Positions 43,745-46,409 of a stretch of DNA of 64,000 nucleotides are shown here, one piece after another. Source of the DNA: Escherichia phage HP3; the sequence record NC_041919.1, one strand, 5' to 3'. Under the pieces are notes generated by a model. That model saw nothing but the letters and a program-made list of their open reading frames with translations. It was not told where the DNA came from and did not search any database. Numbering within the stretch: position 1 is the stretch's first letter; every line of letters begins with the position of its first letter. A program made the translations under genes and the position numbers.

Positions 43745-44773
43745 ATGTCATCAATACCTTGGATTGATAATGAGTTTGCGTATCGTGCATTAGCTCATTT
43801 ACCTAAATTCACACAAGTAAATAATAGTTCAACTTTTAAATTACGGTTTAGATGCCCAGTGTGTGGAGATTCAAAAACCGACCAAAATAAAGCCCGTGGA
43901 TGGTATTATGGTGATAATAATGAAGGAAATATTCATTGTTATAACTGTAACTATCATGCACCAATCGGAATATATTTAAAGGAGTTTGAACCTGATTTAT
44001 ATCGTGAGTATATCTTTGAAATAAGAAAAGAAAAAGGTAAAAGTCGTCCAGTAGAAAAACCTAAAGAACTTCCTAAACAACCTGAGAAGAAAATAATTAA
44101 ATCTCTTCCGTCATGCGTTAGATTAGATAAACTGGCGGAAGACCATCCAATTATAAAATATGTAAAAGCTCGTTGTATTCCAAATGATAAATGGAAATAT
44201 CTTTGGTTTACAACCGAATGGCCTAAATTAGTTAATAGCATAGCACCAGGAACATACAAAAAGGAAATTTCTGAGCCTCGTCTTGTTATTCCAATTTATA
44301 ATGCTAATGGAAAAGCTGAGTCTTTTCAAGGACGTGCATTAAAGAAAGATGCTCCTCAAAAATATATCACCATTAAAGCTTATCCTGAGGCAACAAAAAT
44401 ATATGGAGTCGAACGAGTTAAAGATGGTGATGTATATGTTCTAGAAGGACCTATAGATTCACTTTTTATTGAAAATGGTATAGCTATTACGGGTGGTCAA
44501 TTAGACCTAGAAGTTGTTCCATTTAAAGATAGACGAGTGTGGGTTTTAGATAATGAACCTCGTCACCCTGACACTATCAAACGAATGACTAAATTAGTTG
44601 ATGCAGGAGAAAGAGTTATGTTTTGGGATAAATCTCCCTGGAAATCAAAAGATGTTAATGATATGATTAGAAAGGAAGGTGCAACCCCTGAACAAATTAT
44701 GGAATATATGAAAAATAATATTGCCCAAGGGTTGATGGCTAAAATGCGGTTATCTAAATATGCCAAGATTTAA
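43745..44773 (+). CDS. 61: DNA primase gp61 (342 aa)
   Basis: Zinc-binding CPVCGDS...CYNC; 342 aa. Confidence 0.95.
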   Translation: MSSIPWIDNEFAYRALAHLPKFTQVNNSSTFKLRFRCPVCGDSKTDQNKARGWYYGDNNEGNIHCYNCNYHAPIGIYLKEFEPDLYREYIFEIRKEKGKSRPVEKPKELPKQPEKKIIKSLPSCVRLDKLAEDHPIIKYVKARCIPNDKWKYLWFTTEWPKLVNSIAPGTYKKEISEPRLVIPIYNANGKAESFQGRALKKDAPQKYITIKAYPEATKIYGVERVKDGDVYVLEGPIDSLFIENGIAITGGQLDLEVVPFKDRRVWVLDNEPRHPDTIKRMTKLVDAGERVMFWDKSPWKSKDVNDMIRKEGATPEQIMEYMKNNIAQGLMAKMRLSKYAKI

Positions 44774-44970
44774 ATTAACCCAACTAAAGCAAATGCTAGA
44801 TCTACGAATGTATCAAGAGTAATTACTGGAATATTAACACCATGAGCAATAGCAATTGGTGATAAAACAAAATTCCAGAGTAAAATTCCTACCATAGCAG
44901 AAATAGTAAAAGCTATACGTTTTTTATTACCTTTTATGGCATTAACAAGTGCCATTAATTTTTGTGCCAT
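44770..44970 (-). CDS. small membrane protein (66 aa), opposite strand
   Basis: Minus-strand ORF with AGGAGG SD (complement of 44975-44980) upstream of its ATG; hydrophobic segments; convergent with gene 61. Confidence 0.55.
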   Translation of the reverse strand: MAQKLMALVNAIKGNKKRIAFTISAMVGILLWNFVLSPIAIAHGVNIPVITLDTFVDLAFALVGLI

Positions 44971-45014
44971 ATGTCCTCCTTTAAATTAATATTTATCACA
45001 AATTTCATAAATTT

Positions 45015-45044
45015 GTTTACTTTCTCAGCTTGTTATGGTATTAT
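45015..45044 (+). promoter_or_regulatory. T4-type early promoter
   Basis: GTTTAC 45015-45020, TATTAT 45039-45044. Confidence 0.55.
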
Positions 45045-45069
45045 AAAATAAATTGCTGAGGATGATATA

Positions 45070-45630
45070 ATGATTAATAAAATTGTGCATGAAATGGCTT
45101 TAAACGGAGATTCATATAAAATATCTGCCGTAGTTGAAAATTTCATACTTAATAAAGTAAAAGAATATTTCACTGATTGTTCAGTTAGTTATCAAGAAAA
45201 AATGGTTTTAACCGATGATACTGAAAAATCAAATAATTTGTTTTGTTCTAATTTTATAACTAAGAAGCGTACTAGAAGATTTGATATTGTTATTTCTCGC
45301 AACGGTAAAAAGCATATAATTGAAATTAAACACCAAGTTGGTGGAGGTACAGCTATTGATTCGGTTGGAATATATTTAGAAGATAAAGAGAAATTAAAAG
45401 AATACACAAAAACTGAAAACCCTGTGTCATTGATGATATTAGATTTTTTGCCATGCGGATATTATCCACGTAATAAATGGACAAAAAGAGAATCATTTAC
45501 TGATAATCCAACCATCCAAGCAAGATTTAATGAATATGCTAAATCACAAAACGTGTTAGTATTACTATCAAATACATATGATGAAGAATTATATAATTCG
45601 TTTTTTGCTGCAATAAATGAGAGAATATAA
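45070..45630 (+). CDS. PD-(D/E)xK nuclease-like protein (186 aa)
   Basis: Candidate catalytic core [21 protein letters not shown] (D..ExK); very AT-rich; stop overlaps dam ATG. Confidence 0.55.
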
Positions 45631-46409
45631 TGCTAGGAGCTATCGCGTATACAGGTAATAAACAGTCATTATTACCTGAACTTAAGCCTCATTTTCCAAA
45701 ATATGACAGATTCGTGGATTTATTTTGTGGAGGTTTATCAGTGTCTTTGAACGTCAATGGTCCTGTATTGGCCAATGATATTCAAGAACCAATTATTGAA
45801 ATGTATAAGCGTCTTATTAATGTATCATGGGATGACGTTTTAAAAGTAATAAAGCAATACAAACTATCAAAAACATCAAAAGAAGAGTTTTTGAAATTAC
45901 GTGAAGATTATAATAAAACTAGAGATCCTCTTTTACTTTATGTTCTTCATTTTCACGGATTTAGTAATATGATTCGTATAAACGATAAAGGAAATTTTAC
46001 TACTCCGTTTGGAAAAAGAACTATAAACAAAAATAGTGAAAAACGCTTTAATCACTTTAAGCAAAATTGTGATAAAATAATCTTTAGTTCATTGCATTTT
46101 AAAGATGTCAAAATTCTAGACGGCGATTTTGTATATGTGGACCCTCCATATCTTATAACAGTTGCTGATTATAATAAATTTTGGTCAGAAGAAGAAGAAA
46201 AAGACCTTTTAAATCTTTTAGATTCTTTAAATGACAGAGGAATAAAATTTGGACTGTCGAATGTTTTAGAGCATCACGGAAAGGAAAACACTCTTCTTAA
46301 AGAATGGTCTAAAAAATATAATGTTAAGCATCTTAATAAAAAATACGTCTTTAACATATATCATTCCAAAGAAAAGAATGGAACTGATGAAGTATATATT
46401 TTTAATTAA
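45630..46409 (+). CDS. dam: DNA adenine methyltransferase Dam (259 aa)
   Basis: DPPY catalytic motif, FCGG SAM motif; 259 aa as T4 Dam. Confidence 0.93.

Follow-up and report, generated by a model that had tools for sequence, protein, structure and literature searches.

A predicted two-gene restriction-modification-type cassette formed by a nuclease-like gene and dam in the T4-like phage HP3

Introduction

What does the gene lying directly ahead of dam in many T4-like phages encode, and does the Dam methyltransferase of these phages really act alone? The Dam proteins of T4 and T2 have served for decades as model "orphan" phage methyltransferases, and their role is usually given as protection against host restriction. 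We analyzed a 64,000-nucleotide (nt) stretch of the Tequatrovirus Escherichia phage HP3 (NC_041919.1), hereafter the window, in which dam is preceded by an open reading frame (ORF) for a protein of 186 amino acids (aa). A sequence-only reading of this locus had pointed to a restriction-endonuclease-like core in the 186-aa protein, to a 1-nt overlap of the ORF with dam, to the resemblance of the two genes to a type II restriction-modification (R-M) pair, and to a 66-aa gene on the minus strand immediately upstream. The coordinates, motifs and overlap that it gave are all present in the ORF list and on direct reading. Weighing the evidence described below, we lean modestly towards the view that the region 44982-46449 is a compact two-gene R-M-type cassette of a virulent T4-like phage.

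Results

The 186-aa protein has a predicted restriction-endonuclease fold

The 186-aa ORF is present at full length in ~150 phage records and matches PHROG 8706. When it was compared with its relatives, the ratio of nonsynonymous to synonymous substitution rates (dN/dS) was 0.03-0.19, and the corresponding values for Dam were 0.02-0.10. By these ratios the ORF is under purifying selection, and the three observations together mark it as a real gene, not a chance ORF. An alignment of nine family members, with identity down to 29%, revealed that E23, Q42, S54, R69, D72, E85, K87, H88 and Q89 are invariant, as are GTAIDS (residues 93-98), P118, S120 and D125. The two motifs noted earlier, FDIVIS and EIKHQ, are present, the former within RRFDIVIS (residues 69-76) and the latter at residues 85-89.

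The AlphaFold2 model based on the family alignment has a predicted local distance difference test score of 79 and a predicted template modelling score of 0.79. The predicted elements run in the order helix (E23), strand, strand (D72), strand (E85-x-K87), helices, strand, helix, strand and helix, and in the model this order is that of the canonical PD-(D/E)xK core. Homology and fold searches bore out the nuclease-like core of the sequence-only reading: a restriction-endonuclease fold is predicted, with MunI and EcoRI as the nearest structures. The gene ahead of dam therefore has, at the level of the predicted fold, the recognised nuclease fold and motif of a type II endonuclease gene. In the BFVD viral fold search, the orthologue from phage MX01 was recovered, and all other matches were generic nucleases.

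The family is small and forms 10 clusters in a set of 5.8 billion proteins. When 1.84 billion protein representatives were searched with a profile, there were 11 matches, all of them family members, fragments or low-complexity artefacts (P0016 and P0017 are examples of the last), and two word-indexed searches of the 5.8 billion proteins added no distant relatives. The sequence search of the PDB gave no match at E <= 10, the NCBIfam search gave no meaningful match, and no homologue was found in a scan of 185,579 bacterial and archaeal reference genomes. In the IMG/VR and JGI metagenome scans, homologues were found at T4-like phage loci only.

Similarity to DpnII

The best Pfam match of the window protein was DpnII (PF04556; E 0.0045, profile positions 152-235 of 278), with a score of 16.8 bits against a gathering threshold of 23 bits. 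DpnII was the top Pfam match for 4 of the 9 family members (E up to 1), the best E value being 8.3e-5, and the PADLOC REase_II model PDLC03548 matched the same core (E 9.1e-5). The database similarities of the protein are confined to these sub-threshold matches to DpnII and to the PADLOC type II restriction endonuclease model.

We then compared the family alignment with a 15-sequence alignment of the DpnII family using hhalign. The DpnII seed sequence was validated; it scored 335.7 bits to PF04556 over positions 1-277 and showed 99-100% identity to database DpnII entries. The two alignments matched over 91 columns with an E value of 6.5e-4 at a probability of just 27.6%, and E23, D72 and E85 were paired with the DpnII-invariant residues E152, D201 and E214. 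We regard this match as suggestive of a link to GATC; it falls short of indicating family membership or specificity.

The ORF is joined to dam across phage genera

Every homologue examined lies directly upstream of a D12 methylase gene, in arrangements ranging from abutting genes to a 35-nt overlap. In the window, one base is common to the TAA of the ORF (45628-45630) and the ATG of dam (45630-45632). The dam product matches the Pfam D12 methyltransferase family (PF02086) with an E value of 6.5e-51, and it gives a full-length match to the PADLOC "orphan methyltransferase" model.

The linkage spans three Tevenvirinae genera and metagenomic contigs. In MX01 (Dhakavirus), the ORF and dam occupy the same context between genes 61 and 56, and in the metagenomic T4-like contigs L005-L009 the two genes abut or overlap by 1 nt. 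In KPV15 and L024 (Jiaodavirus), the pair overlaps by 7 nt and is found at another genome position in these Klebsiella phages, between rIIB and a topoisomerase gene. The most distant members, L010 and L011, show overlaps of 35 and 20 nt, respectively, and the L011 pair adjoins an rIIA-like gene. The R-M-like pairing that had been proposed for the window is thus seen in every homologue examined, each being joined to a Dam-class methylase gene; as in type II R-M systems, a separate methyltransferase gene adjoins that of the putative endonuclease.

The identities of the ORF product and Dam to those of the window drop together, with ORF/Dam values of 0.97/0.99, 0.64/0.76, 0.63/0.70, 0.56/0.72, 0.41/0.62 and 0.30/0.52. 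Gene 61 diverges at about the same rate where it can be compared (0.59-0.60 identity). Since the ORF, Dam and gene 61 diverge in step, the ORF and dam appear therefore to be a long-standing unit.

Expression signals of the cassette

The promoter scan revealed TTTACT-17-TATTAT with a TG upstream of the ORF. A sequence of the form GTTTAC/GGTTAC-N16-17-TA(t/c)(a/t)AT, usually with TG ahead of the -10 element, also precedes the ORF in MX01, L009, L005, KPV15 and L011, so that an early-type promoter is found in six lineages, in each upstream region that could be read. We take this layout to match the T4 early-promoter consensus. From its sequence, the cassette looks like an immediate-early bicistronic unit.

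For T4, a 1984 annotation (X01416, 391-419) gives P(E)17.40 as a potential promoter of dam; its -35 sequence lies in the dam.1 leader and its -10 sequence in the ORF remnant. In the window, these two sequences lie 540 bp apart, the -10 part being at ~45558-45562. The T4 dam promoter thus appears to be a fusion created by deletion. An internal dam promoter in the 3' end of the ORF was considered and rejected, as the -35 sequence of P(E)17.40 comes into place through the T4 deletion and the annotation does not carry over to the window.

Distribution and one-sided decay

All counts given here are of database records, not of independent isolates. When the ORF and dam were used together as a megablast query, 182 records matched, and 147 of them, all carrying most of both genes, did so at a query coverage of at least 80%. 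The ORF is thus present in ~81% of dam-carrying records. A tblastn search with the ORF alone gave 153 records, six of which are Klebsiella phages. About 35 records match from ORF nucleotide 474 on, which is the T4 state of dam plus a remnant; many of them are T4 laboratory stocks. The "orphan" arrangement of T4 is a minority state among dam-carrying records. The dam.1 region matches 502 phage records, and ~320 records, including T6 and RB7, have neither the ORF nor dam.

In T4, the gene order is 61, a 309-nt unannotated gap and dam. Alignment showed that the gap holds the intact 66-aa minus-strand ORF and, of the 186-aa ORF, just the 28 codons at its 3' end; in T4 records tblastn recovers only ORF residues 159-179/186. 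The sequence-only reading had named a conserved T4 protein of known non-nuclease function as the case that would speak against a nuclease, and T4 keeps this remnant only. The alignment indicates that the orphan dam of T4 results from a 540-bp deletion. In T6-type phages, ~40 unrelated bp replace the whole cassette between dam.1 and gene 56. T2 carries the ORF with a 1-nt deletion near its 3' end, by which the last few residues are altered and the ORF ends 13 nt from dam; GenBank M22342, the T2 dam entry, spans the whole ORF and leaves it unannotated. Miner and Hattman (J Bacteriol 1988) reportedly described, for T2 compared with T4, an extra 536 bp inserted 5' to dam and without known homology.

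Other carriers show further damage. KarlGJung/Bas37 keeps dam with a 61-aa fragment of the ORF, and G29 keeps dam with a split ORF, which may be a sequencing error. No record with the ORF and without dam was found in a 60-row sample or in the record counts for the ORF and for the ORF with dam. The decay is one-sided: dam outlives an ORF that is deleted, truncated or frameshifted (T4-type phages, KarlGJung, G29 and T2). As in type II R-M systems, the methylase survives alone and the putative endonuclease is not kept alone, which here is seen in few independent lineages. One-sided loss of this kind is what would be expected if a restriction gene disappeared and its methylase stayed on as an orphan.

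The locus and the minus-strand gene dam.1

The features of the locus are listed in Table 1. The region is 100% identical to that of Escherichia phage HP3.2 and ~99% identical to those of many T4-like phages of E. coli, Shigella and Yersinia. A spacer of 99 nt separates dam.1 from the 186-aa ORF, and dam is followed by gene 56, which encodes a dCTPase. In T4, the homing endonuclease gene segF lies directly after gene 56. In the window (46409-47400), small ORFs such as that at 46988-47188 (66 aa) take the place of segF, and likewise in T6; this is a second presence/absence polymorphism beside the cassette.

Table 1. Features at the dam locus of the window
Feature	Position	Strand	Basis or remark
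Gene 61, primase	43745-44773	+	ORF list and direct reading
dam.1, 66 aa, small hydrophobic membrane-type protein	44770-44970	-	Convergent with gene 61; ORF and AGGAGG
Promoter-ORF-dam cassette, 1468 bp, presence/absence unit	44982-46449	+	BLAST junctions against T6; record counts
T4-late-promoter-like motif GATAAATA	44990-44997	-	Read from sequence, 19 nt upstream of the dam.1 ATG
540-bp stretch absent from T4: promoter and ORF codons 1 to ~158	45003-45542	+	Alignment, BLAST
Early-type sigma-70 promoter of the cassette	45015-45044	+	GTTTAC(T), 17-nt spacer, TG-extended TATTAT; promoter scan
186-aa gene, predicted PD-(D/E)xK fold, candidate catalytic E23, D72, E85, K87	45070-45630	+	
dam, 259 aa, D12-class N6-adenine (GATC) methyltransferase	45630-46409	+	Pfam PF02086

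The 66-aa gene with its AGGAGG, located 5 nt before the ATG, proved to be a real conserved gene. The T6 record names it Dam.1. It falls into PHROG 2024, a group of unknown function, with an E value of 5.8e-31, and shows a dN/dS of 0.16-0.23 against close relatives. Its stop overlaps that of gene 61. That it is the only opposite-strand gene, as had been claimed, is consistent with the T6 annotation, in which dam.1 stands alone on its strand among the 89 features of the homologous 50 kb. Dam.1 contains two hydrophobic segments, at about residues 18-43 and 47-66. Highly divergent counterparts with 21-26% identity and the pattern LWN...P.A...G...P..T occupy the same position in MX01, L007 and L009. 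In the last of these, a divergent metagenomic contig, an additional 93-aa ORF (3657-3938) lies between dam.1 and the nuclease-like gene.

An octamer, GATAAATA in the window, is located 19-21 nt upstream of the dam.1 ATG and resembles what we take to be the T4 late-promoter consensus. MX01 and L009 have a perfect TATAAATA at the same distance, and T6 has AATAAATA. In phage Lutter, this 8-mer carries a promoter annotation. Based on these sequence features, dam.1 is probably a late-expressed small membrane protein gene. It is intact in T4 and unannotated in the RefSeq record NC_000866, and we suggest it as a candidate unannotated late gene of T4, lying antisense within an early region. A terminator-like hairpin followed by a T-run was found within the coding part of dam.1, on the plus strand (44936-44955), and it could perhaps, to judge from its sequence, stop read-through from gene 61 antisense to dam.1; the scanned region has two terminator-like sites where 0.7 would be expected. 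Because dam.1 is present in the ~320 records without the ORF and dam, it is independent of the cassette and its proximity is coincidental.

Discussion

Proposed function and alternatives

We propose that the T4-early-type promoter would give a single mRNA for the ORF and dam, from which two proteins would be made: the 186-aa PD-(D/E)xK endonuclease and, with its translation coupled by the TAATG overlap, the Dam GATC methyltransferase. The nuclease of the cassette is probably GATC-specific, and it would cut unmethylated GATC as DpnII and MboI do, while the phage DNA would be shielded by phage Dam methylation and the host DNA by host Dam. Since host and phage DNA would both be Dam-protected, the practical targets would be incoming or co-resident DNA without GATC methylation. 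Candidates are the dam-less T-even relatives (~64% of Tequatrovirus records are without dam) and other under-methylated coliphages. The unit may also be no more than a selfish, addiction-type element. In the carriers EL, BGP and Geo and in non-carrier relatives, about a fifth to a third of hydroxymethylcytosine is unglucosylated (PMC13390438). The same paper, on Durham-collection phages, gives 5-hmC, alpha-glucosyl-hmC and gentiobiosyl-hmC at ~1:2:2 in EL, BGP and Geo and mostly the gentiobiosyl form in non-carrier relatives. It has been reported that the virion DNA of KP15 is almost fully digested by DpnI and is thus Dam-methylated, and that KP15-type carriers have ordinary cytosine DNA with this DpnI sensitivity (PMC3620542). 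Dam methylation of the DNA of such carriers fits the self-protection that an R-M pair requires.

Here, we need to consider several points that weigh against a GATC R-M cassette. Cleavage by the 186-aa protein, its GATC specificity and its sensitivity to methylation are deduced from fold and sequence. The match to DpnII stays below the family threshold, covers a part of an architecture of ~280 residues, has a low hhalign probability and pairs K87 with an invariant Asn of DpnII, and the similarity could be a generic PD-(D/E)xK resemblance. In addition, the known hosts are all Dam+ and the phage DNA contains (glucosylated) 5-hydroxymethylcytosine (hmC); therefore, a methylation-sensitive GATC enzyme would have no obvious target in a simple infection. 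A nuclease gene that comes first in the unit and is read from an immediate-early promoter is an uncommon arrangement among R-M systems. No cellular R-M ancestor was found in the 185,579 genomes or among the 1.84 billion protein representatives, in which T4-like contigs alone were recovered. Finally, the carriers are closely related, and few independent lineages stand behind the rule that the nuclease never occurs without the methylase.

The lack of an obvious target would be removed if the ORF encoded another kind of methylation-directed nuclease, either a MutH-like nickase acting at hemimethylated GATC when phage DNA is repaired or recombined, or an enzyme dependent on methylation that would turn Dam marks against cytosine-containing host DNA and spare the hmC DNA of the phage. 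The obligate linkage to Dam would suit such an enzyme, early expression would suit an attack on host DNA, and the PD-(D/E)xK class includes MutH; we consider this reading rather improbable all the same. We also regard as fairly unlikely that the ORF encodes a restriction enzyme that evolved in hmC phages, is active and cuts GATC with hydroxymethylated or partly glucosylated cytosine. Such an enzyme would be aimed at the dam-less T-even majority, either as a phage-against-phage weapon or in the manner of a selfish homing-like element, and would contribute to GATC depletion. As for GATC, it is the most under-represented of the 256 tetranucleotides in the window, with 72 sites observed and 211 expected from trinucleotide composition (observed/expected ratio, O/E, 0.34; the next-lowest tetranucleotide has 0.58). 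The O/E is also 0.33 in T6, which has neither dam nor the ORF (first 50000 nt of the locus), and 0.33 in a 6.5-kb stretch of KPV15. The depletion is therefore shared across the lineage irrespective of the cassette, and we rejected it as a sign of cassette activity because it is equal in the cassette-less T6.

A free-standing homing-type endonuclease of the seg/mob kind, cutting a site within or close to dam or gene 56 in non-carrier phages and spreading by recombinational repair, with dam as a passenger or a resistant target, would account for the clean presence/absence polymorphism between gene 61 and gene 56, both conserved. Elements of this kind abound in T4-like genomes, segF lies beside gene 56 in T4, and a GATC is located 50 bp from the empty site in T6. 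However, the ORF stays coupled to dam at the other position in KPV15 and L024, and its co-divergence with Dam at about the gene 61 rate suggests long residence and not recent invasion. The fold and the remote similarity point to type IIP restriction enzymes, there is no GIY-YIG or HNH Pfam match, and no extra DNA-binding domain of the Seg/Mob kind was detected in the 186-aa protein. We consider a homing enzyme unlikely. An inactive DNA-binding partner or regulator of Dam with a nuclease fold, for example one that alters the site preference or expression of Dam, would fit the matched output of both proteins that translational coupling implies, and T2 (a carrier) and T4 (a non-carrier) reportedly differ in the extent of Dam methylation. 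However, that difference has been attributed to substitutions within Dam itself, T4 Dam functions without the ORF, and all family members share the four canonical catalytic residues, which would not be expected for a scaffold; such a partner is quite unlikely. Repeated loss or damage in T4, KarlGJung, G29 and T2 might suggest a decaying relic without current function, but this is contradicted by the selection analysis, in which the dN/dS of the ORF is near that of Dam, by the full length and invariant motifs that persist in lineages down to 29% identity, and by the conserved promoter. A relic is highly improbable.

Based on these considerations, we favor the R-M-type cassette, and the ORF and dam are predicted to be a virus-encoded member of the type II R-M systems. 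If the ORF product is an active GATC endonuclease, Dam in T-even phages would primarily be the protective partner in a restriction system carried by the phages themselves, and the reference strain T4 would be a deletion derivative that hid this protective role. The ORF product would be a very small restriction enzyme at 186 residues, possibly adapted to modified DNA, and could have practical value. The locus also raises the questions of whether virulent phages use restriction enzymes against competitors, why dam is found in only about a third of Tequatroviruses, and why GATC is avoided.

Comparison with known systems

Most GenBank records label the ORF a hypothetical protein, and one (Shinka) labels it a putative restriction endonuclease. 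A 2026 paper mentions in one sentence "a restriction enzyme-like gene" beside a Dam-like gene in three Tequatroviruses (PMC13390438). Our literature search found this as the sole mention of the ORF and found no characterised T-even restriction enzyme, nothing on "dam.1", and no account of the cross-genus coupling, the early promoter, the DpnII-like core or T4 dam as a deletion derivative.

The MunI/EcoRI-class type IIP endonucleases (1D02 and 1ERI) are nearest in predicted fold, but their sequence identity to the phage protein is just 12%; MunI reads CAATTG, and the fold match says nothing about the target sequence of the phage protein. DpnII/MboI-type systems, in which R.DpnII is accompanied by the Dam-family methylase DpnM and the site is GATC, resemble the cassette in having a D12 methylase beside a PD-(D/E)xK-type endonuclease. 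The phage protein, however, has 186 aa compared with 288 in DpnII, is without the N-terminal ~125 residues, and has ExK where DpnII has ExN. Unlike in DpnII, the phage nuclease gene precedes the methylase gene and overlaps it, and it is found in T4-like phages only.

The chlorovirus PBCV-1 encodes a GATC R-M pair, including M.CviAI with A579L and an early-expressed methylase (PMC7248222). This pair, R.CviAI/M.CviAI (A579L/A581R), is the closest functional precedent, as it belongs to a lytic virus with its own GATC pair. The DNA of its eukaryotic algal host is without GATC methylation and is an obvious target, whereas the hosts of the window phage are Dam+. Lastly, T4 Dam is known as an "orphan", yet the window dam, with 96-97% nucleotide identity to it, is paired with the ORF and is not an orphan, and the orphan Dam of T4 looks like what is left of an R-M pair carried by a phage.

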